Positions 41,065 through 54,686 of a DNA stretch of 64,000 nt are shown piece by piece. The position numbers and the translations under genes are program-made. The stretch spans positions 1-64,000 of the IMG/VR virus record IMGVR_UViG_3300045999_010033; one strand, 5' to 3'. Positions within the stretch are counted from its first letter, which is position 1; each line of letters starts with the position of its first letter. Below the pieces are notes generated by a model. That model did not search any database, was not told the origin of the DNA, and was given only the letters and a program-made list of their open reading frames with translations. This stretch comes from a virus.

Positions 41065-42154
41065 TGTTTACAACAAACGGAAAACGAGGTATGCCGTCCG
41101 GCGTTAAATTGAAATACTTTACAGTTGCCTGCTTACCTATGAGCTGTTTTCGGTTCTTCAACATTTCGGCAGTTTCTTCCCACGTTCCCTTTACATTTGA
41201 TTTGAAGCGTTTACCATCTTCCGTTTGGAATACAAAGTACCCAGCAGTTCCTGCTCTATTACCTTCACCCTCACAAATATCAATGATTTGGTATTCTTCA
41301 TCAATAAATGATTTGTGCTTCAATAGGTTCTTACTACGTTTGTTTTCATACTTACCATCCAAACGTAGCATCTGTCCTTCATATCCGGCTTCCACATATT
41401 GACCATACATAGCCATCAGCACTTCTTCGGTTAAGCATACGGTAGTTTCAACTCTAACACAATGCTTTTCAAAGGCATTTTTGAAATCATCAAACAAATC
41501 AACCAAAGTAATAGAACGATTCACAAACACGTCATTTACACTTGGTACATCGTAAATCCAATACTGAATGTTCTTCTCACTTTCTTCTAAATCTTCTTCG
41601 GTTGGTTTGGTTTTCTTCACTAACGAAACAATCTTATTGAAATCGTTGGCGAACTTATCGGCATACAACTCACCATCCAATATCAAATCGGGTTTGTTCT
41701 GAAATAGTTTATCCAATGATTGGCGGATATGTGGTGCGGATATAATCTCTTTACCATTACGGCTGAACATTCCATCCTTTGTAACTATACAGCGAATACC
41801 GTCCAGCTTCGGTTGAGAGTAGATAGGGTATTCGACCTTATCTTTGTAGTCCTCCCATTTTGCGGCCAACATCGGTTCAAAGTATTGCTTCTTATTTATA
41901 TGTTTGATGTTCTCAAAGTAACCACGTTCCAATTTCAATTTACGTTTAGCTTCAGCTTCTTTGAGTGCCTGCTCGTTATCCGTAGTGGCGTTTGCTCGCC
42001 CTTCATTCTTACCATACACTTCTGTCCACTCACTAATTACTTTTTTACCATCGGTTTGGCCTGATATGGTACGATACCGATTCTTTACTACTTCAATAGT
42101 CCACTCCTGCACCTTACCGCCCTTCGTGGATTTGTAAATTGTTTCTAACTTCAT
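41042..42154 (-). CDS. ATP-dependent DNA ligase (small T7-type)
   Basis: Motif I 'PKLDGIRCIV' (KxDGxR); 370 aa. Confidence 0.7.
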   Translation of the reverse strand: MKLETIYKSTKGGKVQEWTIEVVKNRYRTISGQTDGKKVISEWTEVYGKNEGRANATTDNEQALKEAEAKRKLKLERGYFENIKHINKKQYFEPMLAAKWEDYKDKVEYPIYSQPKLDGIRCIVTKDGMFSRNGKEIISAPHIRQSLDKLFQNKPDLILDGELYADKFANDFNKIVSLVKKTKPTEEDLEESEKNIQYWIYDVPSVNDVFVNRSITLVDLFDDFKNAFEKHCVRVETTVCLTEEVLMAMYGQYVEAGYEGQMLRLDGKYENKRSKNLLKHKSFIDEEYQIIDICEGEGNRAGTAGYFVFQTEDGKRFKSNVKGTWEETAEMLKNRKQLIGKQATVKYFNLTPDGIPRFPFVVNIDRNSYE

Positions 42155-42313
42155 ATGTGTCTGTATTATTATAGGCAGAATTATCCCAAACTTTGTTACA
42201 CAAAGATACGTAAAGTTGCCGATATAACCAAATAATTTTGTAACCCATTGAAAATCAATGAGTTACACTAAAAAGTAAAGTTATACCTTGACTTTTTGGG
42301 TATAAAAGTAAAG

Positions 42314-42769
42314 TTATACCTTTACCAAATGATCTGCTGCGTATGTGGCTATCGGACCAAGAGACTTGAATCTGCAGCGATATCCCATACCTTCCACAAG
42401 TCCAACGGCTTGACGGAATACTTCATTGGATTTGAATTTGGGATCTGGGTTGATGTCAATATCAATGAATTTCACTTTGGGCAAACCGGCCACTTTCAAT
42501 TCTTCGGCAGCTTCAATCGCATACCAAACTTCATTCAACAATCGAATGGAACGTGTAGGTTCTTTATCAGCTTTCCATCTACGAAAAATGACATGAGCAC
42601 CTTTACCTGGCGTATGCATCGCAACTACGATAGCATAGATTGTTCGGTCGGTAAAGTTTTGTGAGTCGCATCCAATTAGAATATCCACATCGGTATGTTC
42701 TTTAAGGTATTCTTTCATATATGGAACTAACTCGAATTCGTCTTTCTGATAAAGTTTTTTGAATTTCAT
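42314..42769 (-). CDS. hypothetical protein
   Basis: ORF track. Confidence 0.5.
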   Translation of the reverse strand: MKFKKLYQKDEFELVPYMKEYLKEHTDVDILIGCDSQNFTDRTIYAIVVAMHTPGKGAHVIFRRWKADKEPTRSIRLLNEVWYAIEAAEELKVAGLPKVKFIDIDINPDPKFKSNEVFRQAVGLVEGMGYRCRFKSLGPIATYAADHLVKV

Positions 42770-42828
42770 ACAACACGTTTTTACATTGTTACAAAGTTTT
42801 AAATTTTACATAATACAAATACTAATAG

Positions 42829-42910
42829 TACCCCGAATCGGACTCGAACCGATACGCCTTTCGGCACCGCATCCTAAGTGCGGCGTGACTGCCAATTCCA
42901 CCACCAGGGC
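42829..42910 (-). tRNA. tRNA-Leu(TAG)
   Basis: Manual fold: AC stem CCGCA/TGCGG, loop CTTAGGA, long V-arm, T-arm ATCGG-TTCGAGT-CCGAT. Confidence 0.7.
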
Positions 42911-43006
42911 AATTAAGCGGAGAGTGATGGTAACGATCCATCTTGAGTTTTACCCCAGCCTCGGTTTAGCAAACCGGCCCCTTACCTTTCGGGCAACTCT
43001 CCATTG

Positions 43007-43087
43007 TACCTCGAATCGGACTCGAACCGATACGTCTTTCGACACTTGATTTTGAGTCAAGCATGTCTACCATTCCATCACCAAGGC
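43007..43087 (-). tRNA. tRNA-Leu(CAA)
   Basis: AC stem CTTGA/TCAAG, loop CTCAAAA, long V-arm. Confidence 0.7.
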
Positions 43088-43198
43088 GAATCCTGCTCTT
43101 TTATCTACAACTTAATGTAGTCGAACATCCAACACTATAACATACGTTTTATAGTTGCTACCATTGGAGGCAGGCAGAATTGAATCTATGTTCACTGC

Positions 43199-43357
43199 TG
43201 ACAGGGTTGGATTCGAACCAACAAACCGAGATTCAGTAACGAGCACATAGTGCTGCAGCATTGTGGTCAACCCATACTCATTACCTATTTCTATATCGGC
43301 GACTGCGAGACGAGCAGCTGTGTTTGCCAAGATATTACATCGTTTCACCACCTGTCA
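43199..43357 (-). ncRNA. 159-nt tRNA-like gene with large internal insertion (acceptor TGACAGG/CCTGTCA, T-arm GTTGG-TTCGAAT-CCAAC)
   Basis: 3' half canonical; only complementary 5' acceptor strand lies 159 nt upstream, exactly 7 nt after tRNA-Ser 3' end. Confidence 0.4.
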
Positions 43358-43364
43358 ATCTATG

Positions 43365-43447
43365 CGGAGAGGAAGGGAATCGAACCCCCAAGGCTTTTAC
43401 ACCCGACTGTTTTCAAGACAGCGTCCTCGTCCATTCGGACCCTCTCC
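43365..43447 (-). tRNA. tRNA-Ser(TGA)
   Basis: Acceptor GGAGAGG/CCTCTCC, AC loop CTTGAAA, long V-arm. Confidence 0.7.
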
Positions 43448-43455
43448 ATTATAAG

Positions 43456-43528
43456 AGCGGAAGGCCGGGTACGATCCGGCAACCTCAGCCTTGGCAAGGC
43501 TGCGCTCTACCAATTGAGCTACTTCCGC
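43456..43528 (-). tRNA. tRNA-Gly(GCC)
   Basis: Acceptor GCGGAAG/CTTCCGC, D-arm AGCTCAATTGGTAGAGC, AC loop TTGCCAA. Confidence 0.75.
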
Positions 43529-43742
43529 AGTTTCCCCACCTTGAGATTACAGATGAGTAGTTATTTCGGTTTTCTATTTCTTAAAACCCGCGAGGCATCC
43601 CTCATTAAAACAGCCAACACTACTGGGAGAGATTGTGTCAGTCTCTTTATCCCACGATGTCTCACTCTAGCCGCAGACATTCTGCTAACCTATTGTTAAA
43701 TGAGTCTTAGGTCAAAGACTACTGAGTATCTCTTACTCATTG

Positions 43743-43814
43743 AGCGAGAAGTCGGAATCGAACCGACATATCCAGCTTGGAAGGCTGGAGTAATAACCGT
43801 TATACTATTCTCGC
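43743..43814 (-). tRNA. tRNA-Gly(TCC)
   Basis: Acceptor GCGAGAA/TTCTCGC, AC loop CTTCCAA. Confidence 0.75.
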
Positions 43815-43820
43815 AGTTAG

Positions 43821-43894
43821 TGGAGATGGAGGGATTCGAACCCCCGACTTTTAGAATGCAAATCTAACGCTCTAGCCAACTGAGCTACATCCCC
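43821..43894 (-). tRNA. tRNA-Ala(TGC)
   Basis: Acceptor GGGGATG/CATCTCC, AC loop TTTGCAT. Confidence 0.75.
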
Positions 43895-43933
43895 ATTGAT
43901 TATCGTTCTATGGACGTTTTTAATTTTTAATTA

Positions 43934-44323
43934 TTATAATACTTTTTCTGATTTTAGTTTTGTTTCAAATTTGTCAAATCGGGAATCAATATAAGAACGA
44001 TTTTCATCAATTCTTTTATGAATTTCCGGCTCAACCTGATCATGAACATTTTTCTGAAATTCATCAATACGTTTATGGATTTCACCCGAAACTGAATCAA
44101 TATCGCGATGTACATCAGGTAGTATGTGTTCATACACATCCCTTTTAAATTCATTGAGTTCTCTATTTGTATTTTCAAACATTGAATGCGTGTTTGAATA
44201 CACATCATCGAATCTCTTAACGTGCTTACTTACCATTATATTTGCCCTCACGATGCCGATAACCATACCAATTAGTATGACTGTAGCTATCCCAAGAACA
44301 TAGGCAATATACATTTGTTCCAT
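43934..44323 (-). CDS. membrane-anchored protein with internal repeats (start trimmed to MEQMYIAY)
   Basis: Listed ORF extends N-terminally over a tRNA-like gene; TM helix then repeated 'IHKRIDE/HRDIDS' units. Confidence 0.5.
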   Translation of the reverse strand: MEQMYIAYVLGIATVILIGMVIGIVRANIMVSKHVKRFDDVYSNTHSMFENTNRELNEFKRDVYEHILPDVHRDIDSVSGEIHKRIDEFQKNVHDQVEPEIHKRIDENRSYIDSRFDKFETKLKSEKVL

Positions 44324-44360
44324 AGTTTGTTTTCTCCTATATGTCAAAGAACGATAATCG

Positions 44361-44471
44361 TGCCCCAGGCGGGGGTCGAACCCGCACTCGCTTTCAGCGA
44401 ACAAGATTAACGCCGCGACGTGTTGAAGCTTGCGTTAAGTCTTGCATGTCTACCTATTCCATCACCAGGGC
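44361..44471 (-). tRNA. tRNA-Leu(TAA)-like gene with 26-nt insertion in the anticodon loop
   Basis: Acceptor, D-arm, AC stem CAAGA/TCTTG, V-arm TCGC-TGAAA-GCGA and T-arm all fold; loop is 33 nt CTTAA[..]AA with internal 7-bp hairpin TTAACGC/GCGTTAA. Confidence 0.5.
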
Positions 44472-44526
44472 CCATACCTACCTTAATAGGTATGTTTGTC
44501 TATAATGTAAATATAGTAAAAGTTTT

Positions 44527-45594
44527 TTAATTATCCAAATCTTTCCGAAAAGGTTTTGCGTATTTAGGGCGAATACATTTCCATATAATAGAATCGTAAT
44601 CCCTCCCATCTAACATAGAAAATAATATTGATGCATGATTATAACGGATTGCTTTGATTGCAAACTCTTTTCTGCTCAAATTTTCACTACGAATGATTGA
44701 GAATATTTCCAAATAATCACGTTTAATATTTTCAAATCTAACTACCAAGTCTTTTACGGTATCCTTTACCCACGTATCAAATTCGTCCGGCACTCTTTCC
44801 AATAACTCATTCAAATCACCACCGGTCCGCAACAATTCCCAGATATCTACATTCGAAACATTGGTGATTATCTTATGAAGTCTTACATACTCTTCACCTT
44901 TGATTTTCATTCTCTTCCCACCTTTGAAACGTATTACATAACCTTCGGCATCATTTGAAATCATATCCTTCAACTTAGTGAAGTCAGTAACACCATTGTA
45001 CTTTCTAACAACTCTTACATCGGTAAAAAGTGCTACTGATTTAGTCAAAGTTTCAAATTCAATTTCGTCCAAAGTATCTCTATCATATGCACCCAACAAT
45101 ACCAAACCCTCAAATGGGTAGCGGCAGACTATCCGATTCTCATCATATATGATTTCAAAAAGGTAAGTCCAATTTTTTCTCAATCCAGTTGTAGGATAGT
45201 TTTTCAATATAGATAATCCCTTCAACATTTCAGTTGCCTTAACGGCTTGCTCTGAAACGAATGAACCTCTCGTTGCTACTATCCAATCTCCGTTATAGTA
45301 AAATGCAATTCCTAAAGAACCGTCCATCTTTTCAAAGACTTCAAATGATTCGTTTGGAATTTCACTATTGGATAATTCTTCCATATTGAAAAATTTTGGA
45401 AATGGTTTGGCTACCACAGTGCCTTCATTATCCAAAACCAATCCACGGCAATCCAATGTAACTGCATCCCACAATCGGTCGTATTGGCACGTTCTGCTGT
45501 AATTGTAGATTGATAAAGGTAACGTTGGATGGTCTTGCTTAACTATCAATCCTCGTCCGATATAATCGTTCAATATGTTTAATGGATATTTCAT
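44527..45594 (-). CDS. RNA ligase family protein (KxDG; Rnl2/DRB0094-like)
   Basis: 'FEKMDGSLGIAFY' motif I; 355 aa; upstream of Pnk-like kinase. Confidence 0.6.
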   Translation of the reverse strand: MKYPLNILNDYIGRGLIVKQDHPTLPLSIYNYSRTCQYDRLWDAVTLDCRGLVLDNEGTVVAKPFPKFFNMEELSNSEIPNESFEVFEKMDGSLGIAFYYNGDWIVATRGSFVSEQAVKATEMLKGLSILKNYPTTGLRKNWTYLFEIIYDENRIVCRYPFEGLVLLGAYDRDTLDEIEFETLTKSVALFTDVRVVRKYNGVTDFTKLKDMISNDAEGYVIRFKGGKRMKIKGEEYVRLHKIITNVSNVDIWELLRTGGDLNELLERVPDEFDTWVKDTVKDLVVRFENIKRDYLEIFSIIRSENLSRKEFAIKAIRYNHASILFSMLDGRDYDSIIWKCIRPKYAKPFRKDLDN

Positions 45595-45995
45595 AATTTT
45601 ACACTAAAACGTTTCCGCATTTTTTCCAAAGTCTCATCCGGTACACCATGTACGGATTTATTACCATGTCTATTTTCTACAATCAATGATACAACGGTGT
45701 ATCCATAGCTCTTTGCTAACTTCAAATATGGTTCAAGTTCCCTTTCGGTAGTTGCCGTATTGGATACTACAATCTCTTGTCCATACTGAGTCGTTTCACT
45801 CATTTGCATCAATTCCTCAACACGCTTTTGACAATCCAAATGGGCTTCATGCAATTTCGAAGCGTCAAAATTGTAGTTACCGTTTGAATCGTAAAAGTAT
45901 TGGTCTGCCTCAAACACATTATTTGAAAACATATATTTAGCAAATGAGCTTTTACCACTACCGGGTAAACCACGTAATATGATTAATGTTTTCAT
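45591..45995 (-). CDS. polynucleotide 5'-kinase (T4 Pnk kinase-domain-like)
   Basis: 'MKTLIILRGLPGSGKSSFA' closely resembles T4 Pnk N-terminus 'MKKIILTIGCPGSGKSTWA'; 134 aa. Confidence 0.65.
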   Translation of the reverse strand: MKTLIILRGLPGSGKSSFAKYMFSNNVFEADQYFYDSNGNYNFDASKLHEAHLDCQKRVEELMQMSETTQYGQEIVVSNTATTERELEPYLKLAKSYGYTVVSLIVENRHGNKSVHGVPDETLEKMRKRFSVKL

Positions 45996-46009
45996 ATGCT
46001 CTTTTTATA

Positions 46010-46348
46010 TTATTGTATAGATAAAAGATAAGTTTTTAATTTTTTCAAAACAACTTCGATGTTAAATGCTATTCGATATGGTCGTTTTAAACGGTGTTCA
46101 TCTATATTAATGTAAGTCACACGATGCCATCCCATAGCAAATAGCTGATATGTTCCATCGGAAAGGGGAGTTTTATATAAGATAACTTCCACAATCGGTC
46201 CGAAGGAGTTATTCTGTGCGTATGGTATATTTCTAAACCTAAATGCATAGCTAGGTCTACCTGCTACAAGCACTTCACCTACACTTTCTATTACGTGCCC
46301 ATCGCACTCCATTCCAACTGCCCTATCAATATTTTTTATGATTAACAT
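46010..46348 (-). CDS. hypothetical protein (paralog pair D, member 1)
   Basis: ML.IKNIDR..GM.C.G...YQLFAMGW..V. Confidence 0.5.
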   Translation of the reverse strand: MLIIKNIDRAVGMECDGHVIESVGEVLVAGRPSYAFRFRNIPYAQNNSFGPIVEVILYKTPLSDGTYQLFAMGWHRVTYINIDEHRLKRPYRIAFNIEVVLKKLKTYLLSIQ

Positions 46349-46357
46349 TTGTGAAAT

Positions 46358-46687
46358 TTATTTGTGTGATTCAATCCAATGTTGTAACTTCTTCAATACA
46401 GTTTTAATTCTACCAGCCAAACAATGGGCATGACGTATGTCGGATTCATCAACGTAAATAAACGTTACTTTCTGCCATCCCATAGCAAATAGTTGATACT
46501 TTCCATCAGAATTAGGAACTCTCTCCAATACAACTTCAACGATTGGACCACGAAGGCTACTCTGAACCCAAGGTATATCAAATTTAAATGTGTATCTAGT
46601 TTTGGATGCGTTTTGTCCAGCATCCATTACATCAATCCCATTACAAAACATTCCGATAATCCTATCAATATTTTTTATAACTAGCAT
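46358..46687 (-). CDS. hypothetical protein (paralog pair D, member 2)
   Basis: Paralogy. Confidence 0.5.
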   Translation of the reverse strand: MLVIKNIDRIIGMFCNGIDVMDAGQNASKTRYTFKFDIPWVQSSLRGPIVEVVLERVPNSDGKYQLFAMGWQKVTFIYVDESDIRHAHCLAGRIKTVLKKLQHWIESHK

Positions 46688-46703
46688 TTTTGCAATTTAT
46701 TTA

Positions 46704-46886
46704 TCAGATGTACTTACTAATATCTTCTTTCTCAATCTCCACTATCGAGTCATCAAGGATTTCTTTGTTATCGTGTCCGACTACAATGGCGGTATAGAAC
46801 TTGCCATCCAGTTCATAGACTTGATAAGCTGAGTCTTTTACCCATTCCCCTTCTCCAATTAAGGTTGCTTTATCTAGGTTTATCAT
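46704..46886 (-). CDS. hypothetical protein
   Basis: ORF track. Confidence 0.4.
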   Translation of the reverse strand: MINLDKATLIGEGEWVKDSAYQVYELDGKFYTAIVVGHDNKEILDDSIVEIEKEDISKYI

Positions 46887-47278
46887 TGTTTTTGTTTTAC
46901 TATTTCAATGAGTTTACGGAGACAAGCAAGTTCTGCTTCTTCTTGTCCATCAAAACTCCCAACCCAAATAGATTCATCTTTATTTTCATCTTGAATCCAT
47001 ATTTCGTACACCTTAGAAAAGGTATCAGGCATTTCAATTACTACTGATTTTCTATACCTAACAAAACTAATAAATAGCCCATAGTTCTTACGAAAGAATC
47101 TGAATGACTGTGAAAATGTTGGACTGAGAGTTATACCATCGCCTTGTCTATCAAAAGACTTTGAATAAAACTTTTTGTTTAGGAAATGTGCAAAACACGG
47201 TTCATCAAACCCAAGTTGCTTCAACTCAAACGCATCTTTGAATGGGATAAAATCTTTCATTGTTTTTGTTTTAGTCAA
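46883..47278 (-). CDS. hypothetical protein (paralog of 40162..40530)
   Basis: Paralogy. Confidence 0.5.
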   Translation of the reverse strand: MTKTKTMKDFIPFKDAFELKQLGFDEPCFAHFLNKKFYSKSFDRQGDGITLSPTFSQSFRFFRKNYGLFISFVRYRKSVVIEMPDTFSKVYEIWIQDENKDESIWVGSFDGQEEAELACLRKLIEIVKQKQ

Positions 47279-47449
47279 TTAAATTTAAAATCGCTACATA
47301 AAGAGCGTAAACGATAACACATAAAACTAAAATCACAATAATCATCATCGTTTCATACGGATATGTTTTTTCACTAATAAGCAATAACCCAAACACTAAT
47401 AATACCAAAAATGTGTAAAATGCTGCTTTAAGTTTCTTTTTCATAACTT

Positions 47450-48112
47450 TTATTTATATTTTTCTACTGATTCATGATGGTCGAAACTCATTAGGCTTTT
47501 GATTGGTTGCCTTCTCATACGGGTAGCAATTTCACTTACCGAAATCGGCCTCAAACCATTACCGTCCACACCAACATCCATCATTTTACCTGGTCCAATT
47601 CTACTAGCCATAGGTAAATGAACGTGTCCATGCAAATGAATTGCACCATTGGCCATTTGGTCCCAACTGGCAATAGGAAAGTGCATCAGTACAAACAATT
47701 CACTACTAACAAGCGGAGTACCCACATTCCGTTTTACAGTTAAATGTAAGTATTTGTTTACGGAACTGAAATGTGATTGACATCCTTCTTTGTTTCTCTC
47801 AATATGATGGTCGTGGTTTCCGGTGATGATGTGAATGTTCTTACATACGATACGATTACGGAAGGCTTCGATTTGCTCAAACCCACCAAAACTCCAATCG
47901 CCCAAATGAAAAAGAATATCATCTTGTCCGACTTCGGCGTTGATGTTATTCACCAATGTATCGTTCATTTCATCCAATGATTTGAAATCTCTACACGTCA
48001 CCGGGTCTTTCCATTGTGTTGTAGTGGAACAGATGTTGGCGTGATTGTAGTGTGTATCAGATGTGAACCACAATTGTTGACCTTTATTTAAACTTATTTT
48101 CATTTGTTTCAT
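47450..48112 (-). CDS. calcineurin-like metallophosphoesterase
   Basis: 'FTSDTHYNH', 'GDWSFGG', 'GNHDHH' motifs. Confidence 0.6.
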   Translation of the reverse strand: MKQMKISLNKGQQLWFTSDTHYNHANICSTTTQWKDPVTCRDFKSLDEMNDTLVNNINAEVGQDDILFHLGDWSFGGFEQIEAFRNRIVCKNIHIITGNHDHHIERNKEGCQSHFSSVNKYLHLTVKRNVGTPLVSSELFVLMHFPIASWDQMANGAIHLHGHVHLPMASRIGPGKMMDVGVDGNGLRPISVSEIATRMRRQPIKSLMSFDHHESVEKYK

Positions 48113-48296
48113 CTTTTAATACAATGATTTCTTTTACTTTCACCGGCCAAATAGGCATCCTATCAATCGTTACCTGCATATGCCCATGTAACGGATTCAC
48201 TCCGCACGATTGGCAGATACCAGTGATTCTTTGACCGGGCCACTTTGGATGGAGTACACTAATACGTTTACCAACCAAATTCAAATCGTTTCTCAT
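48084..48296 (-). CDS. hypothetical protein
   Basis: ORF track. Confidence 0.4.
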   Translation of the reverse strand: MRNDLNLVGKRISVLHPKWPGQRITGICQSCGVNPLHGHMQVTIDRMPIWPVKVKEIIVLKDETNENKFK

Positions 48297-48306
48297 AATA
48301 ATGTGT

Positions 48307-48960
48307 TTATCGCTCTTTAAGTTCTAATGAATCTAAGCTGAAGGGGCAGTACAGCAAAGTTGGATTCTTTTTCTGAATATCAACATTAGGATACTTCTTT
48401 TTGAACTCTATAACATCAAATCTATTAGTAATAAGATGAAATCCATTTTTAGTTGGAATTTCCGCAATACATTTATATCCTTCCGGTCTTAATACGTTGA
48501 TAAATGCCCGGATATCTTCTCTAACAATTTCATCCTTTGTATCAATATCGATAATCCAACGCTTCTCATAAGTTTTCAGTTGCCCAACAACCGAATCAAA
48601 TAAGTTGTTTTGAACGAACTGACCATCTTTGAGTCTTTGTGCCAAAGCCATCATCATATCCAATGAAACATCTTTATGATTTTGTTTCTGAATATGGATG
48701 TAGGCACGTGCTTTAAACATCTCACAAAGTTGGATTATTTCATCATAACGTTTTTCCAAATATTGAATACTGGAAACGCAATATGTTTTTATTGTACGAA
48801 CCGATTGGTGATTATCCCTTTCACCTTCGGGCTGGTCCTTCTTTCTTTTGAAGATATACAACATATAAAAGTCACCCTCGTTATCGAAGTTCAGCAAAGG
48901 TTTGATTAATTCGATATTGTTTATCATACTATACGATTTTTTAGACATAGTGGGTCTCAT
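48307..48960 (-). CDS. hypothetical protein (likely start at MSKKS)
   Basis: N-terminal codons in promoter repeat copy C. Confidence 0.5.
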   Translation of the reverse strand: MRPTMSKKSYSMINNIELIKPLLNFDNEGDFYMLYIFKRKKDQPEGERDNHQSVRTIKTYCVSSIQYLEKRYDEIIQLCEMFKARAYIHIQKQNHKDVSLDMMMALAQRLKDGQFVQNNLFDSVVGQLKTYEKRWIIDIDTKDEIVREDIRAFINVLRPEGYKCIAEIPTKNGFHLITNRFDVIEFKKKYPNVDIQKKNPTLLYCPFSLDSLELKER

Positions 48961-49100
48961 TGTGTATTACTACACAAAGTTAGGGCATTCTGTGCTAATA
49001 AACAAACCTATTTGTTGAATTTTTTCTAAATTTTTGAGGACTTTGTTAGAAAAAATCTAATAGTCATTGATTATCAACGAGTTATAACTCATTGATATTC
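48945..49100 (-). promoter_or_regulatory. conserved upstream repeat copy C
   Basis: See copy A. Confidence 0.6.
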
Positions 49101-49145
49101 TATGAATTATAACGTCTATTGATAATCAATGACTTACGTGGAGAA

Positions 49146-49604
49146 TTATCCCAAATAATCGAATTTTTTGATTATCTTTTTTAAGATTGCCGAATATCCA
49201 CTTGACTGGGAATATATTTTATCTAAATAGGATAGATACTCGGTTCGATTGGATATACTACGTTTTTGTATAAAACGGTCTTGCCACATTTTGTAATCCT
49301 TAACAGAATCTTTCCAACTGAAAAATGTAGCGTATCCACGATTAGATCCAGTGGCCAACGTCTCCCTCACTTTCGGATACTTCATTCCGAATAGATTGTT
49401 ATTTAATTTGAAGACTGTAGATTTAAAATGCCCACTTTCTAAAACAGCTTGTGCAAATACTACTTCGGGATATTTAATCCCATTTGCTATCAATTCACTC
49501 CACAATAATTCATAATTAGGAGGAGTATTCCGCGAGTTGTTCGCAGCGAAGCTCGTAAACAATAAAGGTAAGACGAGCAAACAAACAGTGATGATTTTTT
49601 TCAT
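49146..49604 (-). CDS. mannosyl-glycoprotein endo-beta-N-acetylglucosaminidase-like peptidoglycan hydrolase (candidate endolysin)
   Basis: Signal peptide; 'FAQAVLESGHFKS...NNLFGMK' glucosaminidase (FlgJ-type) signature. Confidence 0.6.
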   Translation of the reverse strand: MKKIITVCLLVLPLLFTSFAANNSRNTPPNYELLWSELIANGIKYPEVVFAQAVLESGHFKSTVFKLNNNLFGMKYPKVRETLATGSNRGYATFFSWKDSVKDYKMWQDRFIQKRSISNRTEYLSYLDKIYSQSSGYSAILKKIIKKFDYLG

Positions 49605-49656
49605 GCGCTTTTTGTTTTGATTAAAAATATGCCATCATTGTGACATTTATATTGAG

Positions 49657-49731
49657 TTGGGTGTGCCAGATTCGAACTGGCGATTTCTTGCTCCCAAAGC
49701 AAGCGCGATAACCGGACTACGCTAACACCCA
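49657..49731 (-). tRNA. tRNA-Pro(TGG)
   Basis: AC stem CTTGC/GCAAG loop TTTGGGA; T-arm GCCAG-TTCGAAT-CTGGC. Confidence 0.7.
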
Positions 49732-49780
49732 GTGTTTAAGTATTAAATATAAGTATTTTTTTGGATTAAACCAAAACTGA

Positions 49781-50515
49781 TTACCATTGTTTTTGAGATG
49801 TAACCAGGAATTGGTGAGCCGGTTGACCCGTGTTGGGGCTAACCCACGATAACCAAGATCCAGTTATTTGTTGAGGAGCCGGGCCTATTACTGATTTATA
49901 TGGAATACGTGCAATCAACGGCCCTTTAATTGTCAAACTACCCGTTGACCAAATGTATAATACAGAATTAGCAGGTAGTATATCTATTGGTGCTTTCCTT
50001 ATTAGGAATACACGCGTATCAGTTCCGGCAGTTGGGAAGCGGTTCATCTGTCCAATTCTTTCACCAACTGCGGTAGAGGCGGTTGCATTAGATGCCGTTG
50101 TATAATATAATGCGTAACTTTGTGTTACTGCACTTCTGGCTACAAGCGAATATCCAATAATATAATTGCCTTGTGGTATTACCGATGCTGTCATAGCAAA
50201 CGCAAATGGTGCACCCCAACTCGTACTACCAGTAGTAGGACCGGTTATTTGTGCATCGGTGTGACCATACTTCACCATACCATTCAATGCCGAAAATACT
50301 GCATTATACGATGCCGAGTTCACTTGAACAAAATCACCAACACTTGCCGAATCATAACTTGCGGTATTTGCCGACGAAAGTGCTGCACGAATTGCATCAG
50401 ATACTACCGATTGTGTTGCAGCCGCCCCTACGTTCATCACCATTCTGCCGATTCCGCTTTGATTATTCATTGATAATCCGCCGCCGGCTCCAGTATTTGA
50501 AAACTTTATGGGCAT
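49781..50515 (-). CDS. Gly/Ala/Ser/Thr-rich protein (possible structural/fibre-like)
   Basis: 244 aa, low complexity. Confidence 0.45.
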   Translation of the reverse strand: MPIKFSNTGAGGGLSMNNQSGIGRMVMNVGAAATQSVVSDAIRAALSSANTASYDSASVGDFVQVNSASYNAVFSALNGMVKYGHTDAQITGPTTGSTSWGAPFAFAMTASVIPQGNYIIGYSLVARSAVTQSYALYYTTASNATASTAVGERIGQMNRFPTAGTDTRVFLIRKAPIDILPANSVLYIWSTGSLTIKGPLIARIPYKSVIGPAPQQITGSWLSWVSPNTGQPAHQFLVTSQKQW

Positions 50516-50560
50516 CTCTTTTCCTTTATAATAGGTATAATGGAATTGAGAAAAAATGGT

Positions 50561-50633
50561 AGTCCCATCGTGATTCGAACACGAAACCTACGCTTTAGAA
50601 GAGCGTCGCTCTAATCCTGTTGAGCTATGGGAC
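50561..50633 (-). tRNA. tRNA-Arg(TCT)
   Basis: AC stem ACGCT/AGCGT loop CTTCTAA. Confidence 0.7.
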
Positions 50634-50653
50634 CATAAAAGATAATTATCTTT

Positions 50654-50727
50654 TGGCGGTTCGTAGGGGTTACGCTCCCCTGCCTTCGCAGTGACAGTGC
50701 GATATTCTACTATTATACTAACGAACC
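50654..50727 (-). tRNA. tRNA-Asp(GTC) with non-canonical T-loop (AGCGTAA) and encoded CCA
   Basis: Acceptor GGTTCGT/ACGAACC perfect, AC stem TCGCA/TGCGA loop CTGTCAC. Confidence 0.6.
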
Positions 50728-50734
50728 AAAACTG

Positions 50735-50817
50735 AGCCGAGAGCCGGATTCGAACCGGCGTGTCCTTGCGGATCCTGATTACAAGTCAGGTGCAATCGGC
50801 CACTATGCGACCTCGGC
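50735..50817 (-). tRNA. class-II (long V-arm, Tyr-like body) tRNA with anticodon TGT
   Basis: Perfect AC stem CCTGA/TCAGG, loop CTTGTAA; D-arm GCA-TAGTGGCCGAT-TGC nearly identical to tRNA-Tyr at 55439. Confidence 0.6.
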
Positions 50818-51027
50818 TTATATTATCTTACAATACTATATACAACCGTCAACATCCAACCATCTCCATTGCTGTTGGTATGTACTGATTCAATCTTTAT
50901 TGTGTTTGGTCCAAATTCTGCAACCCATGCATCAAATTGCCGATTCAATTCATCACCAGCAAAGGTGCCGCGTTTTCCACTTGTAAATACTTTAATCATA
51001 TACTTTTATTTTTATTTTCTGCGTCAG

Positions 51028-51152
51028 GGTGGGGAATCGAACCCCACACTCTCATACCAGGAGCTATGCCTAGAGTTACATCACGTATAGTGTTTTCACA
51101 CATCCCCTATATTATGCGACGGCCTTAACGTTTACCCATTACGTCACCTGAC
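51028..51152 (-). ncRNA. 125-nt tRNA-like gene with internal insertion
   Basis: 5' GTCAGGT-GA-CGT-AATGGGTAA-ACG (acceptor + D-arm) and 3' TGGGG-TTCGATT-CCCCA-CCCTGAC separated by about 50 extra nt. Confidence 0.4.
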
Positions 51153-51343
51153 TACCACTTCTATTTAATTTTGAATAGCCTATCGAAGAATCGTTTTAGA
51201 GTCGGTTTTAGTTTTCGATTTCTTTTTAGCTCTTCTTGATACGCTATTACTTCCAATACCTCATCAAACCTAATTGGAGTTCCTCTACGGACATCATCGG
51301 ATAACTTTTCTAATCTTTCGTTTTTCATTTTTTTATTGTTCAG

Positions 51344-51439
51344 TAGTCAGGACACGAATCGAATCTGTATTTAGGATTGTTTAATCGGGCTTCATACCGT
51401 ACCTACCTTTCGGTGCGTCTACCGTTCCGCCACCTGACT
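51344..51439 (-). pseudogene. degenerate copy of the AGTCAGG class-II tRNA-like element
   Basis: Acceptor AGTCAGG/CCTGACT and D-arm intact, T-stem and AC arm disrupted. Confidence 0.4.
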
Positions 51440-51446
51440 ATTTTAT

Positions 51447-51701
51447 TTATATCCACTTAATACGATTTTCTGTGTCCATCCATTGTTGGAATTGATTTTT
51501 GTTAACCAAACACGTTCTCTTTTCTTCACCAAACATATTATTCATTGTAATTGATGTATCAGGGACAGAAATCAAACACTCAACAATCAAATGATCCCCT
51601 ATCTCACCATGTTCATCATCATAATCTTTTTCTTTCCATCCTAAAATTTCCAAAACGTATTTATTATCTATTCTAATGAATTTTAAAAGACTTTTTTCCA
51701 T
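51447..51701 (-). CDS. hypothetical protein
   Basis: ORF track. Confidence 0.45.
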   Translation of the reverse strand: MEKSLLKFIRIDNKYVLEILGWKEKDYDDEHGEIGDHLIVECLISVPDTSITMNNMFGEEKRTCLVNKNQFQQWMDTENRIKWI

Positions 51702-51702
51702 G

Positions 51703-52011
51703 TTATTTAGTTTTTGCGATTTCTACATTCAAAGCATTATTGAGCAATGAATACAATTTTGATGTAAAATCTCTCGAAAAGATTGACATCCAATTCATCT
51801 CTGTTTCCAACTCCTCAATAGATTCACGAATACTATCTTGATATCCTTTATGGTTAGTCACAATCCACAATGCAAGATTATTAATTCTTACTTTAAGTGA
51901 CTCGGATAAACATCCGTTATTTTGCATCATACAAAAAACTTGGTCTGCCCATTCATTACCACCAGTATCAAACAACTTGTTTTTGTCAGTGTATTTTTTC
52001 ATAATAATCAA
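51703..52011 (-). CDS. hypothetical protein
   Basis: ORF track. Confidence 0.45.
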   Translation of the reverse strand: MIIMKKYTDKNKLFDTGGNEWADQVFCMMQNNGCLSESLKVRINNLALWIVTNHKGYQDSIRESIEELETEMNWMSIFSRDFTSKLYSLLNNALNVEIAKTK

Positions 52012-52018
52012 TTTTTAG

Positions 52019-52096
52019 TAGTCAGGACAGGATTCGAACCTGCATGGTCACTCCTTTGTGTACACCGCGAGCTGCGTTACCATTCGCCACCTGACT
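52019..52096 (-). tRNA. AGTCAGG class-II tRNA-like element (no canonical anticodon stem found)
   Basis: Acceptor AGTCAGG/CCTGACT, D-arm GCG-AATGGTAA-CGC, T-arm GCAGG-TTCGAAT-CCTGT. Confidence 0.45.
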
Positions 52097-52240
52097 AACC
52101 ATAGGAAAGAAGAAGATGGTCGCGTGGACAACTTCTTTTACGATTGGCGTTACTTAGGTGAATACCTCCCAACTCCGATTATATCAGCCGGTATTCACTC
52201 TCGTGCTGTTGATATAATCATTCCCCAATCAACCTATTTG

Positions 52241-52313
52241 TACTCCCGACCGGAATCGAACCGGCATCTTCAGATCGAAAATCTGACGAACTCAACCATT
52301 ATTCGACGGGAGC
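52241..52313 (-). tRNA. tRNA-Glu(TTC)
   Basis: AC stem TCAGA/TCTGA loop TTTTCGA. Confidence 0.65.
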
Positions 52314-52362
52314 AATTGTTATACAATGATAAGGAATTTATTTGTATATTCCAAATCTATGT

Positions 52363-52438
52363 GGGTAACTAATGGGGTACGATCCCATAATCTTCTGCTT
52401 CACAAACAGACGCTTTATTCCATTTAAGCGATAGCTAC
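52363..52438 (-). tRNA. tRNA-His(GTG) with extra 5' G(-1)
   Basis: AC stem TCTGT/GCAGA loop TTGTGAA; T-loop ATCGTAC. Confidence 0.7.
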
Positions 52439-52447
52439 CATATAAAG

Positions 52448-52519
52448 AGGCGGGAGTAGGAATCGAACCTACCTAAGAGGGGTTGCAGTCCTCCACCTGA
52501 GCCACTCGGCCATCCCGCC
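52448..52519 (-). tRNA. tRNA-Cys(GCA)
   Basis: Acceptor GGCGGGA/TCCCGCC; AC loop CTGCAAC. Confidence 0.65.
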
Positions 52520-52525
52520 AGCCTA

Positions 52526-53086
52526 TTACCTATCCATTATGATTTTAGCAAAATTCGTATCAACCTTCACTCTCTCTATCAATTGCTGCGATGTCATATT
52601 TTTAGCTTCTTCCAATATCTTGTCCTTTTGGCTTGCTATACCCAAATCCACCTGTGCTTCCTTTGCCATTGATTTCAATTCAGTAACTACAAAGGTAGAA
52701 AGTTCATGCGGTATTTGTTTAGCCGCCGAATCCGTAGTAAGGAATTGCATCGTACCACCGCCGGCTATGATTAGTAATGTTTCTTTCTTTGTAGGAGTAA
52801 ACATATAACCCGCCCAAGTAATCAAAGATAAAACCAAAGTAACATAAAATATACTTGAGATGTATCGTTTTAACATTTTTGCCGAACGAACCTCAGGATG
52901 TGTTTTTTCTTCTTCTTCGGTTTTACAATTACCATCAGAAATTTGACTCATTAAATGCATCGCCGCACCTATCATCGCAATAAATGCAAAAATAGCCATC
53001 CACGTAAAAATATCACTTGCTACATCGAAGAAAGTCCTAACAGAATCTGCACGAGTTACCCAATAAAAAATAGAATACCAATTCAT
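52526..53086 (-). CDS. integral membrane protein
   Basis: Three predicted TM helices. Confidence 0.5.
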   Translation of the reverse strand: MNWYSIFYWVTRADSVRTFFDVASDIFTWMAIFAFIAMIGAAMHLMSQISDGNCKTEEEEKTHPEVRSAKMLKRYISSIFYVTLVLSLITWAGYMFTPTKKETLLIIAGGGTMQFLTTDSAAKQIPHELSTFVVTELKSMAKEAQVDLGIASQKDKILEEAKNMTSQQLIERVKVDTNFAKIIMDR

Positions 53087-53105
53087 AACATTTGATTTTA
53101 AAAAA

Positions 53106-53348
53106 TTAAACTAATTTATTTGCGATTTTCAAAATTGTTTCCTCATCTTCTTTTGTTAGTTTCCACGCATTTCCAATGAGTTTGCTTACTTGCGCATCAA
53201 ATTCACTAACGGATACATCATCCGGATGAACTCCACCCATTTGCTTTGGAACATATCCATCTTCATACAATGCGTCTGCTAACTCTTGCTTTTCATATCG
53301 GGCTAAACCGAAAATAAGGTCATCAACATCAATTTCAATACTTGCCAT
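53106..53348 (-). CDS. hypothetical protein
   Basis: ORF track. Confidence 0.45.
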   Translation of the reverse strand: MASIEIDVDDLIFGLARYEKQELADALYEDGYVPKQMGGVHPDDVSVSEFDAQVSKLIGNAWKLTKEDEETILKIANKLV

Positions 53349-53358
53349 AACTTTTATT

Positions 53359-53880
53359 TTATTTATTTAGTTTACTAATACACTCATCAACTTTGTCACG
53401 CAACCTACCACCATTTCCGTGGTCACCATTCACCTGAACGTGTCTCCATTGTGGAACACGCATCCATTTGAATTGGCCGGCGAGATTCAAATCATCAATG
53501 GCAATCCAATTTTTCACTCCGTTATCCTTTACCCATTTACGAATTTCTGCCGCACGTTCCCATTCGATTGGTGGACGGCTCATTTTCTTCCATAGGTCTT
53601 GATGTGTGGTGATATCAATCAACAAGTGACCAGGTATTCCAAAGTGTTCAAATACTCGTTTCATTTGGATAAAACTGAAATGCTTTCTCCAATCCGAGCT
53701 CAATACAAGTCGTGCATCAGTCTCACGAAGAACTTTGTGTAGAGCCTGGCAATCTTCCTCTACCCATCTGTATGGGATTTTGAACAATTGTGAACCGGCG
53801 TGCAGTTCAACACGGCCCGTTCCCCATGTTCCCCATGCCAATGGGCCATCAACATCAATGAATATGATTTTATTGTTCAT
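53359..53880 (-). CDS. HAD-family phosphatase (T4 Pnk 3'-phosphatase-domain-like)
   Basis: 'IIFIDVDGPLA' DxDG(T/P) motif I at N-terminus. Confidence 0.55.
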   Translation of the reverse strand: MNNKIIFIDVDGPLAWGTWGTGRVELHAGSQLFKIPYRWVEEDCQALHKVLRETDARLVLSSDWRKHFSFIQMKRVFEHFGIPGHLLIDITTHQDLWKKMSRPPIEWERAAEIRKWVKDNGVKNWIAIDDLNLAGQFKWMRVPQWRHVQVNGDHGNGGRLRDKVDECISKLNK

Positions 53881-54559: not shown

Positions 54560-54603
54560 TCCTAGGGATTTGGAGTCCCATTGGCTACCATAGCCTAACC
54601 CGT
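54535..54603 (-). tRNA. tRNA-Trp(CCA) (short D-arm)
   Basis: Acceptor ACGGGTT/AACCCGT; AC loop CTCCAAA. Confidence 0.6.
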
Positions 54604-54608
54604 GTATG

Positions 54609-54682: not shown

Positions 54683-54686
54683 ATTG

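Follow-up and report, generated by a model that had tools for sequence, protein, structure and literature searches.

Known tRNAs and tRNA-Like RNAs

tRNA bodies are thought to tolerate only small changes in length. In the class II tRNAs (tRNA-Ser, tRNA-Leu, bacterial tRNA-Tyr, and tRNA-Sec), the extra arm between the anticodon and T arms measures 13–25 nt, and tRNA-Asp is normally a class I tRNA. Aspartate identity depends on five strong determinants (G73, G34, U35, C36, and C38) and on the minor determinant G2-C71 (PMC9976931). The pairs G1-C72 and G2-C71 are strictly conserved in bacterial tRNA-Asp, and G1-C72 contributes to identity as well (PMC9976931).

Mimicry of tRNA by larger non-coding RNAs is known from tmRNA and from the YrlA family, which is encoded by some phages (PMC4201824). 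tmRNA lacks an anticodon arm and contains a tag ORF and pseudoknots, while the tRNA-like module of YrlA is internal and its ends form a Ro-binding stem. The species 1 RNA of phage T4 (rnaC, 139 nt), an orphan for 50 years, is a stable small RNA that lies in the phage tRNA cluster a few bases past its neighbors. It has a large structured insert between its 5′ end and its T arm; the T arm is perfect (CCGGG-UUCGAAU-CCCGG), and the nucleotides after it, at the 3′ end, form pairs with the 5′ end. In a different group of RNAs, which comprises OLE, ROOL, GOLLD, HYER1/5, and HIV-1 DIS, palindromes are used for intermolecular pairing; GOLLD is also associated with phage tRNA clusters. Self-complementary sequences that are kept by covariation serve intermolecular RNA pairing (PMC12990946; PMC12286853), and natural RNAs are documented to form homodimers by palindromic pairing (PMC12990946).

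The element described here lies in a 64,000-nt stretch of viral DNA (IMG/VR record IMGVR_UViG_3300045999_010033, positions 1 to 64,000; hereafter, the window). It forms a class-II-style cloverleaf of tRNA-Asp derivation, in which the tRNA core is retained in full and two expansion segments are added: (i) an optional D-loop hairpin; and (ii) a structured variable arm of ~76 nt. The reading favored here, with a probability of roughly 0.6, is that its RNA is a processed, non-decoding tRNA-Asp mimic, which may be aspartylated and would self-associate. The combination of a full tRNA core with rRNA-style expansion segments is conserved in the genomes of more than 100 uncultivated phages, and all members of the family are missed by standard tRNA finders and by Rfam. 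The family is a testable candidate for a new class of tRNA mimics, with two predictions, namely recognition by aspartyl-tRNA synthetase (AspRS) and homodimerization through a palindrome.

The Element and its Parts

The features of the window copy are as follows (all coordinates are on the minus strand).

43197..43357, minus: whole RNA gene, a 159-nt tRNA-shaped body plus discriminator G43198 and C43197
43351..43357, minus: acceptor stem 5′ strand UGACAGG (positions 1–7), partner of 43199-43205
43346..43350, minus: U8, G9, and the D-stem 5′ strand G10 U11 G12; U8 and G9 in 87/87 homologs
43323..43345, minus: D loop, with A13, A14, A15, a mini-hairpin insert, and then UUGGCAAA
43331-43341, minus: the D-loop mini-hairpin insert, 11 nt
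43327-43328, minus: equivalents of G18 G19 in the D loop, in 87/87
43320..43322, minus: D-stem 3′ strand CAC, covarying with positions 10–12
43302..43318, minus: anticodon-like arm, with a 5-bp stem GCUGC/GCAGU (43318-43314 / 43306-43302)
43313-43307, minus: anticodon-like loop UCGUCUC, 7 nt, with G34 U35 C36 at 43311-43309
43225..43300, minus: giant variable arm, 76 nt, whose base stem (43300-43297 / 43228-43225) has covarying pairs; inner pairs A66-U129, G67-C128, and A68-U127 follow, then P4, P4a, and P5
43291-43285, minus: invariant GAAAUAG, opened by G67 and A68
43234-43230, minus: invariant GAAUC, closed by U127 and C128
43235..43285, minus: P4, a 12-bp helix (43285-43274 with 43246-43235) enclosing P4a and P5
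43263..43273, minus: P4a, invariant GGGUUGACCAC, a predicted small hairpin with a UWGA tetraloop and a bulged A
43251..43260, minus: P5, apical perfect palindrome UGCUGCAGCA, a putative intermolecular (dimerization) duplex
43206..43224, minus: U47, U48, and the T arm GUUGG-UUCGAAU-CCAAC
43197..43205, minus: acceptor 3′ strand CCUGUCA, G73 (43198), and C74 (43197); CCA is not encoded

A first-pass annotation of the sequence had proposed a tRNA-like gene at 43199–43357, built from a perfect T arm, the 3′ acceptor strand CCTGTCA, and TGACAGG as the only matching 5′ strand, with a start 7 nt past tRNA-Ser as is usual for the tRNAs of this cluster. This outline stands. The minus strand from 43222..43199 reads GTTGG-TTCGAAT-CCAAC-CCTGTCA, followed by G43198 and C43197, and TGACAGG is found at 43357..43351; within ~480 nt upstream of the T arm there is no other partner for CCTGTCA, even with G-U pairs allowed. 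The upstream tRNA-Ser(tga) ends at 43364, and after six bases the element starts at the seventh, 43357. The 7-mer TGACAGG is not significant on its own, as its 4 occurrences on that strand of the 64-kb window match the 3.9 expected. The proof of pairing is comparative: all 7 acceptor pairs are kept in 87 homologs (99.8% of cells), and each of the 7 changes on both sides in at least one sequence. The minus-strand span and the acceptor stem formed by its ends are supported.

Other parts of that annotation did not survive the comparison. It had recognized no anticodon arm, but a 5-bp stem with a 7-nt loop is present at 43302..43318 and its stem pairs covary. Of the three identities that it offered, an intron-containing tRNA, a split tRNA, or a tRNA-derived structured RNA, the last is correct: the additional nucleotides of the window copy (~85 nt and 11 nt) lie at the variable-arm position and in the D loop, respectively, rather than in the anticodon loop.

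A Family of Homologs in Uncultivated Phages

Searches of IMG/VR with nhmmer and the model R1 returned more than 130 loci matching the element (97–185 bits, most above 115), and the homologs come from more than 100 contigs of uncultivated phages. R1 scores the window copy at 156 bits (E=8e-42) over the full model length. The family ranges from 145 to 177 nt; 89 distinct sequences were aligned (alignment A3), and the conservation counts given throughout refer to 87 distinct full-length homologs. In A3, 96.8% of cells are paired and 32/37 pairs show double-sided change. None of 500 shuffles reaches the real value, and slid controls give 41–53%. Since A3 was fitted to the model, its pair counts are inflated; the MAFFT alignment A2 is free of that bias and has 96.7% of cells paired, with double-sided change in 20/37 pairs. 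RNAalifold, which shares this freedom from bias, recovers the same architecture independently from the MAFFT alignment, including P4a, P5, and the N-N′/G-C/A-U extension. Covariation places the D stem, anticodon-like arm, and T arm in canonical order. G-U pairs are frequent, and the fold is thus specific to the minus strand. That this is a conserved phage RNA gene with the secondary structure described is close to certain, and the alignment with related phages that the first-pass annotation had suggested as a check supplies covariation in every helix.

The family matches no Rfam model. At the locus, cmscan reported no match, either across 42000-58500 at E<=1 or across 43080-43370 at E<=10, and neither tmRNA (RF00023) nor YrlA (RF02553) was matched there. 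Default ARAGORN made no call at the locus and detected 0/87 of the intact family members. In blastn against isolate phages, a 501-nt region around the element was matched only through its neighboring tRNAs and a typical member was unmatched, so the family is known only from metagenomes. A scan of a genome collection with a 17-base pattern gave 120 matches, of which the only true members were on 4 short contigs from Bacteroidota MAGs; nearly all of the others were chance. The family is not described in the full-text literature searched, although a 2023 catalog of ~8,500 candidate structured RNAs from IMG/VR (PMC10690425) may contain fragments of it.

Escape from default ARAGORN and Rfam would also be expected of a decayed tRNA remnant whose 7-nt complement is there by chance, and folding the window copy on its own gives a minimum free energy of unexceptional stability (z = -1.03), which is uninformative. 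A small protein gene is a related reading, because the ORF noted at 43112..43351 can indeed be called (minus strand, 79 aa, GTG start). The ORF is not conserved, however: 84/87 homologs have stops in its frame and no frame is open across the family, which, with the variation in length, shows that the element is not protein-coding. Decay is likewise at odds with the size of the family (more than 130 homologs) and with the compensatory changes seen in every helix, and the comparative data have already refuted both forms of this explanation.

The tRNA Core and Aspartate Identity Nucleotides

The element resembles class II tRNAs in its 7-bp acceptor stem, 3-bp D stem, G18 G19, A15-U48 pair, 5-bp/7-nt anticodon arm, extra arm between the anticodon and T arms, and UUCRANY T loop; the order of its arms is common to class II tRNAs and tRNA-Asp(GUC). 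U8, G9, A14, A15, G18, G19, and U48 are each present in 87/87 homologs, and U48 can in principle pair with the invariant A15 (Levitt pair). The D-stem pair 10-25 is G-C, A-U, or U-A, and the pair 11-24 is U-A (62) or C-G (25). In the anticodon-like stem, 5/5 pairs covary and 99.8% of cells are paired. The T loop carries UUCRA in 87/87; all but one of the T-stem pairs vary, the two middle pairs covarying strongly, and in roughly half of the members a U is bulged out of the 5′ strand of the T arm.

With GUC and C38 in its anticodon loop and G73 as its discriminator, the element also resembles bacterial tRNA-Asp. The family loop is YN-GUC-YC, in which GUC (G34 U35 C36) is found in 87/87 and C38 in 84/87, while positions 32, 33, and 37 vary. 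G2-C71, G73, and C74 each occur in 86/87. All five strong Asp determinants are therefore near-invariant. When both expansions are trimmed in silico, default ARAGORN calls tRNA-Asp(GUC) for 84/87. In contrast to the G1-C72 pair of bacterial tRNA-Asp, the 1-72 pair of the family is U-A (86/87), which speaks against the proposed aspartate mimic.

As an elongator, the element is only partly canonical. The cloverleaf is complete, with covariation support for every helix, but the family length lies outside the ~70–95 nt of elongator tRNAs and intact members escape both ARAGORN and the Rfam tRNA model (RF00005). U33 and a purine at position 37 are not conserved, unlike in canonical tRNAs: the counts at position 33 are 41 U, 34 C, 11 A, and 1 G (not U in 46/87), and those at position 37 are 74 U, 11 C, and 2 A (pyrimidine in 85/87). 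Because of these two positions and the huge arm, the RNA would not be expected to decode on the ribosome.

Judged from conservation, the two invariant sites at opposite ends of the predicted L are what a synthetase reads. According to the mechanism proposed here, the element would be co-transcribed with the tRNA array and undergo tRNA-like maturation (RNase P cleavage at U1, 3′ trimming, and CCA addition), after which the RNA would fold into an L shape. By displaying the AspRS recognition set (G73, G2-C71, G34 U35 C36, and C38), it could bind the host AspRS and possibly be aspartylated. AspRS is one of the class II synthetases, which reach tRNA from its variable-loop side, and the 76-nt variable arm may sterically block the enzyme. 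Alternatively, GUC, C38, and G73 could in part be a legacy of descent from tRNA-Asp, or a different protein (an anticodon nuclease or a modification enzyme, for instance) could recognize them. That AspRS binds or charges the RNA is on balance a tentative proposal, a little on the doubtful side.

If such a protein is the target, the element might instead be an uncharged decoy or sponge, which by imitating the anticodon stem-loop and L shape of tRNA-Asp would titrate a host protein acting on that tRNA. Candidate targets include a colicin E5-like anticodon nuclease (YGUN specificity) and a modifying enzyme acting on G34, such as TGT, and the large arm would add stability, dimer avidity, or resistance to cleavage. 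The invariant GUC preceded by a pyrimidine at position 33 in 75/87 would suit such targets, and the non-canonical positions 33 and 37 speak against decoding. These phages also carry a separate canonical tRNA-Asp. In T4 biology, RNA ligases are the classic tRNA-repair toolkit against anticodon nucleases, and in the window the gene for a T4 Rnl1-type RNA ligase directly adjoins the tRNA array, with a second RNA ligase also encoded. On the other hand, a target in the anticodon loop would not need invariant U1-A72, G2-C71, G73, and C74; no tRNA-Asp-specific nuclease is known in the presumed Bacteroidota hosts; and the invariant motifs of the arm are left unexplained. This reading is considered unlikely, though credible.

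The class II position of the arm, the 3-bp D stem, and the A15-U48 pair would also fit charging by seryl-tRNA synthetase (SerRS), an enzyme that recognizes its tRNAs chiefly by extra-arm length and makes no use of the anticodon. Bacterial tRNA-Ser conserves G73 and G2-C71, and the element usually follows a tRNA-Ser gene. SerRS would leave the invariant GUC and C38 without explanation, and the trimmed element is typed as Asp by ARAGORN. The SerRS coiled-coil binds an arm of 5–7 bp, a size far exceeded by the irregular ~76-nt arm of the element. Serylation is accordingly judged highly improbable.

The Variable Arm and its Palindrome

The extra arm of the element differs from the short arms of class II tRNAs in being branched, in carrying invariant motifs (GAAAUAG, GAAUC, and GGGUWGACCAC), and in ending in an apical palindrome. 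Within the arm, A3 columns 86-160 are 100% Watson-Crick over four pair types. P4 shows double-sided change in 11/12 pairs and has many G-U pairs, which tie the structure to this strand, and the closing pair of P4a (A3 columns 108-120) covaries between G-C (63) and U-A (9). A candidate pseudoknot between GACCACC and G6-G12 (GGUGGUG) was dropped, as the 5′ partner varies while GACCACC is invariant.

These observations bear on the proposal of an intron-containing or split tRNA, from which an insert of ~85 nt would be excised to leave a functional decoder. A scan allowing long introns does yield such a model: ARAGORN with -ps90 and -i reports tRNA-Lys(ctt) with an 86-nt intron. The two phage RNA ligases could in principle seal the exons, and another tRNA-like gene in the window has an anticodon-loop insertion. 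The D and anticodon pairings of the ARAGORN model, however, are not the ones kept by the homologs, whereas the D stem, anticodon-like arm, and variable-arm base described above are kept in 87 sequences, and the model was rejected. The insert lies in the variable region, not in the anticodon loop where tRNA introns sit (canonically at 37/38, or as group I introns within the loop) with a group I core or a bulge-helix-bulge motif, and it combines invariant single-stranded motifs with covarying helices, as in a functional domain. It has no group I or group II match in Rfam and, at ~76 nt, is too short for a group I core; moreover, once it was removed, the variable loop would have only 3 nt, and the anticodon loop would still lack both U33 and a position-37 purine. 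Splicing to a decoder is extremely improbable.

P5 is a perfect palindrome of 8–12 nt in 82/87 homologs and is absent in 5/87. About 20 different palindromes occur, with a self-complementary tetramer at the center in every case (UGCA, GGCC, AGCU, CCGG, UCGA, CGCG, or GCGC), that is, self-complementarity is kept while the sequence changes. One palindromic form is GCUUGCAAGC, for which a palindrome-broken counterpart is, e.g., GCUUCCAAGC. Full-length two-copy RNAcofold was uninformative, as any hairpin can swap strands, and was replaced by a comparison of hairpin and duplex for P5 only. The P5 hairpin has 0 to -1.6 kcal/mol, compared to -17 to -24 kcal/mol for the two-strand duplex, and for P5 of the AGCCGGCU class an intramolecular hairpin cannot form. 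The apical palindrome would thus pair with that of a second copy to give a homodimer, and self-association through P5 is considered probable. The D-loop insert, a feature of neither class II tRNAs nor tRNA-Asp, varies in length between members, from ~0 to 27 nt, and is often perfectly palindromic as well, which would make larger assemblies possible.

In an extended form of the tRNA-Asp mimic, the expanded tRNA would be both aminoacylated and self-assembling, and the phage would make an aminoacyl-carrying RNA assembly outside normal decoding. AspRS would charge the RNA through its complete Asp identity set, and copies would be linked, as dimers or longer arrays, through the palindromes of the variable arm and the D-loop insert. 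U1-A72 is the single determinant used by bacterial GatCAB to amidate Asp-tRNA (PMC1635274), and the invariant U1-A72 of the element could even route the bound Asp to Asn. If true, such an assembly might, for instance, donate amino acids, trap a synthetase or an amidotransferase, or act as a scaffold. The combination is decidedly speculative and is given a low probability.

Comparison with T4 Species 1 RNA and Other Structured RNAs

The nearest known analog of the element is the T4 species 1 RNA, with which it shares its place in a phage tRNA cluster a few bases past its neighbors, the perfect T arm and pairing end strands, and the large structured insert. There is no detectable homology between the two: R1 gives only 10.5 bits (E=0.019) over part of rnaC. 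The acceptor-like stem of rnaC is mismatched, no D arm or anticodon-like arm could be placed in it, and GAAAUAG, GGGUWGACCAC, and the palindrome are missing. T4 rnaD was considered as a relative and set aside, as it is not tRNA-like. With the present family, the T4 orphan gains a much larger group of structural analogs, which suggests that RNAs of this long tRNA-like kind recur in phage tRNA arrays and are functionally important there.

tRNA mimicry by a larger RNA is shared with tmRNA and YrlA, but the element is a full cloverleaf, unlike tmRNA, and its ends form the acceptor stem, unlike those of YrlA. Intermolecular pairing through a palindrome, as proposed from sequence for the element, is shared with OLE, ROOL, GOLLD, HYER1/5, and HIV-1 DIS; the element is far smaller than these homo-oligomeric RNAs and its body is a tRNA.

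Genomic Context

Where a preceding same-strand tRNA was found, it was tRNA-Ser in 42/56 loci. In 18 of the 32 loci preceded by tRNA-Ser(tga), the element lies 4–10 nt downstream. Clustering of neighboring genes across 86 loci revealed no universally linked protein partner, and an RNaseH-like DUF458 protein adjoins the element in only 15 of 86. A promoter and terminator scan gave no excess over shuffles, Bacteroidota-type promoters being outside the coverage of the tool. tmRNA is also present in these phages, and GOLLD is encoded within the same window. The phage tRNA arrays of this lineage hold several further unannotated long tRNA-like genes.

Structure and family of the element

Comparative analysis places the RNA gene at 43357..43197 (minus strand, which carries every tRNA gene of the window) in a large phage RNA family without an Rfam match, in which a tRNA-Asp-like cloverleaf bears expansion segments. 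Its sequence is UGACAGG-UG-GUGA-AAC[GAUGUAAUAUC]UUGGCAAA-CAC-A-GCUGC-UCGUCUC-GCAGU-C-[76-nt arm]-UU-GUUGG-UUCGAAU-CCAAC-CCUGUCA-G-C. The first-pass annotation was exact in its placement of the 3' acceptor strand, the T arm and the 5' strand TGACAGG, and the first base of the element is the 7th past tRNA-Ser(tga), which ends at 43364. As had been claimed, TGACAGG at 43357 is the sole partner for CCUGUCA within ~480 nt upstream, with G-U pairs allowed; the 7-mer itself occurs in the window at chance frequency (4 observed, 3.9 expected). The sequence by itself is not decisive: neither ARAGORN at default settings nor Rfam, with hits up to E<=10 admitted, makes a call at the locus, and the single-sequence fold of the window copy is unremarkable (z = -1.03).

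Fifteen related IMG/VR loci were retrieved with the RNaseH-like protein that flanks the element (42314-42769, minus strand), and the 276-nt inter-tRNA gap was run against them as an nhmmer query. The matches coincide with the proposed 159-nt span, full-span matches running from query position 4/5 to 168-173; in these loci the 111 nt that follow the span were unmatched. Alignment of related phages, one of the checks originally suggested, revealed compensatory changes: in a MAFFT alignment of nine homologs these affect the acceptor stem (e.g., UGACAGG/CCUGUCA, UGUAAGG/CCUUACA, and UGUGGUA/UACCACA) and five further helices. A hand-written structure imposed on this alignment has 96.7% of cells paired and both-sided change in 20 of 37 pairs; it was equalled by 0/500 shuffles, and slid controls gave 40-53%. 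An independent RNAalifold run on the same alignment returned the identical architecture plus two small hairpins. In a model-guided alignment of 89 distinct sequences (A3), 96.8% of cells are paired and 32/37 pairs show both-sided change (shuffles equalling this, 0/500); A3 is biased towards R1, the covariance model of the family, a bias from which the MAFFT and RNAalifold results are free. The many G-U pairs tie the fold to the tRNA-sense strand. Covariation thus establishes the secondary structure with a probability of about 0.95, and the original observation is both real and more interesting than was proposed. The proposed span is correct. The extra sequence, however, is no anticodon-loop intron and does not point to a split gene. 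Relaxed ARAGORN settings yielded a "tRNA-Lys(ctt) with an 86-nt intron," which was rejected because its helices are not conserved across the family. The overlapping ORF (43112..43351, minus strand) is disrupted in 84 of 87 homologs.

Family size was gauged with R1 and the degenerate pattern GAAATAG-N10-14-GGGTNGACCAC. Viral contigs hold at least 120 pattern loci and, among the matches listed, all but four contain a full-length R1 match (~100-185 bits). Among the pattern matches listed for the genome collection, only four are true members, each on a short contig assigned to a Bacteroidota MAG (Cytophagales, "Bacteroidetes," Bacteroidia, and Algoriphagus), and GenBank isolate phages gave no match to the family.

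The tRNA core and aspartate identity

Parts of the tRNA core (tRNA numbering; counts among 87 distinct full-length homologs)
Acceptor stem: 7 bp; U1-A72 in 86/87, G2-C71 in 86/87
U8, G9: invariant
D stem: 3 bp; pair 10-25 is G-C, A-U or U-A, pair 11-24 is U-A or C-G
D loop: A14, A15, G18 and G19 invariant; insert of ~0-27 nt between N16 and G18
Anticodon-like arm: 5-bp stem, covariation at every pair; 7-nt loop; single linker nt 3' of the arm
N47, U48: between large arm and T arm; U48 invariant, pairing in principle with A15 (Levitt pair)
T arm: loop UUCRA; covariation at middle pairs; bulged U in about half of the family
3' end: acceptor 3' strand, then G73 (86/87) and C74 (86/87)

The covarying 5-bp stem and its 7-nt loop contradict the statement that no anticodon arm can be recognized. 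CCA is unencoded, as in the neighbouring tRNAs. When the D-loop insert was deleted and the arm interior swapped for GAAA, default ARAGORN called 84/87 members tRNA-Asp(GUC), as opposed to 0/87 intact members.

The loop consensus is Y32-N33-G34-U35-C36-Y37-C38, with GUC in 87/87 and C38 in 84/87. Position 32 is U or C, position 33 is U (41 sequences), C (34) or A (11), and position 37 is U (74), C (11) or A (2). The element's G34, U35, C36, C38, G73 and G2-C71 are the identity determinants of tRNA-Asp, all strong except the minor G2-C71 (PMC9976931). Both tips of the L are invariant beside freely varying neighbours, a pattern that speaks for selection through a protein reading the two ends together, as a synthetase does. 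Class II synthetases approach the tRNA on its variable-loop side, where the 76-nt arm projects, a point against simple aspartylation. Pair 1-72, U-A in the element, also counts against it; G1-C72 is kept in bacterial tRNA-Asp (PMC9976931). Recognition or charging by AspRS is possible but doubtful; the main rival reading is an RNA that stays uncharged and would act as a decoy for some protein targeting tRNA-Asp. For a charged element, U1-A72 offers a speculative lead, as this pair allows bacterial GatCAB to amidate Asp-tRNA (PMC1635274); the window's own tRNA-Asn has G1-C72. A third point against simple aspartylation lies in the non-canonical positions 33 and 37 and in the separate normal tRNA-Asp (loop CUGUCAC) of each phage, which make ribosomal decoding by the element unlikely.

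The large variable arm and its palindromes

The large arm occupies exactly the position of the class II tRNA extra arm.

Parts of the large variable arm
Base: 4 bp, covarying, then a bulge
Beyond the bulge: covarying N-N' pair, G-C and A-U; the G and A open invariant GAAAUAG, the U and C close invariant GAAUC
P4: 12-bp helix, covariation at 11 pairs
Apex: three-way, holding P4a and P5
P4a: invariant GGGUWGACCAC, closing pair covarying

Apical P5 is a perfect 8-12-nt palindrome in 82/87 distinct sequences and occurs in ~20 versions, among them GCUUGCAAGC, GCCGGCCGGC, GCUAGCUAGC, GCAUGCAUGC, AGCCGGCU, GCUCGCGAGC, and GUGCGCAC; that of the window is UGCUGCAGCA (43260-43251). Its central four bases are self-complementary in all cases, with seven different tetramers. 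A hairpin does not explain this centre, because P5 folded on itself reaches only 0 to -1.6 kcal/mol (and a hairpin is impossible for the AGCCGGCU class), whereas the two-copy duplex reaches -17 to -24 kcal/mol. Many short D-loop inserts are also perfect palindromes (e.g., GCGUACGC, GCUUAAGC, UGUGCACA, and GACCUAGGUC), one of them 20 nt long. RNA homodimers such as those of HYER1/5 are known to form through palindromic pairing (PMC12990946), and larger homo-oligomers, among them OLE, ROOL, and GOLLD, were visualised recently (PMC12990946; PMC12286853). The element RNA probably self-associates through P5. Among the steps beyond structure, confidence falls from tRNA-like maturation through this self-association to AspRS recognition or charging.

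Position 32 correlates with the W of GGGUWGACCAC (A3 columns 63 and 113, window 43313 and 43269), C occurring with A in 47 and U with U in 34 of 87 sequences. The relation is not Watson-Crick and may stem from lineage or from a contact, either tertiary or intermolecular. One phage contig (L120) carries two tandem copies, at 3960-4107 and 4114-4271; in the downstream one P4a and P5 have been lost, with the tRNA core, GAAAUAG, and GAAUC retained.

Genomic context and comparison with known RNAs

The window, from an uncultivated phage, is rich in tRNA genes, with 24 ARAGORN tRNA calls and 4 further ones from Rfam. It also encodes a DNA ligase, NAMPT, and the following.

Other features of the window
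29919-31145, minus: second RNA ligase (OB-fold domain, PHA02142 type)
44527-45594, minus: T4 Rnl1-type RNA ligase, immediately adjoining the tRNA array
55991-56405, minus: full-length GOLLD RNA (Rfam RF02032; 296.6 bits, E=2e-84), within the tRNA array, few bases from tRNA-Gly(tcc)
57661-57994: phage tmRNA

The two RNA ligases suggest a capacity for tRNA repair. Across the fetched loci, the same-strand tRNA preceding the element is tRNA-Ser in 42/56 cases, 18 of the 32 elements after tRNA-Ser(tga) sit 4-10 nt downstream of it, and the element is usually the final gene of the array. This spacing and position fit co-transcription and tRNA-type end processing, so that the element would mature as a tRNA does. 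No protein consistently linked to it was found.

The kind of molecule is a known one, the tRNA-like non-coding RNAs of phage tRNA arrays. The nearest described analogue is T4 species 1 RNA (rnaC), a stable RNA of 139 nt without a known function that lies at the end of the T4 tRNA cluster; its T arm is perfect, and an imperfect acceptor-like closure surrounds a large insert. However, R1 scores it at only 10.5 bits, so analogy rather than family membership is claimed. The element shares its layout with class II tRNAs, but its arm is far longer; its anticodon and discriminator carry the tRNA-Asp signature, but U33/R37 and G1-C72 are not kept. tmRNA and YrlA are also tRNA mimics, but their topologies differ, and their Rfam models do not match the locus. 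Literature searches returned no description of the family, fragments of which may be included in a bulk IMG/VR structured-RNA catalogue (PMC10690425).

Other tRNA-like genes

The gene of the window that looks really intron-like is a class II tRNA-Leu(UAA)-like gene (44361-44471, minus strand), with a 26-nt insertion, CGCAAGCUUCAACACGUCGCGGCGUU, in the anticodon loop after A36 that lengthens the anticodon stem by 7 bp. It scores 38.4 bits over 111 nt with Rfam tRNA and receives no ARAGORN call; in five relatives from the fetched loci the loop, CUUAAAA, is uninterrupted.

Second and third tRNA-like families were also found. The second (window 12283-12376 and 52019-52096, minus; L119, with 4 copies, L120, L106, and L108) has a common acceptor stem, (A/G)GUCAGG...CCUGACU-A-C, and T arm, CAGGUUCGAAUCCUG, around very different middles. 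Full-pattern matches are 88-162 nt long, and the window copy at 52019-52096 is 78 nt. The copy at 12283, labelled "tRNA-???" by ARAGORN, combines a CCG anticodon-like loop with a D arm near-identical to the main element's (R1 47.9 bits). The third family (108-117 nt; GCCGGUGUGGCGGAA...CACCGGC-AC), found as weak R1 matches at L073 9367-9474, L032 658-767, L012 8462-8570, and L109 40-156, has an atypical T loop. Rfam, unlike ARAGORN, called tRNAs at 50657-50727, 55629-55700, and 52019-52096 (minus strand). Among them are the canonical tRNA-Asp of the phage (loop CUGUCAC) and its tRNA-Asn (GUU), whose T loops are both unusual, e.g., GGGGAGCGUAACCCC.
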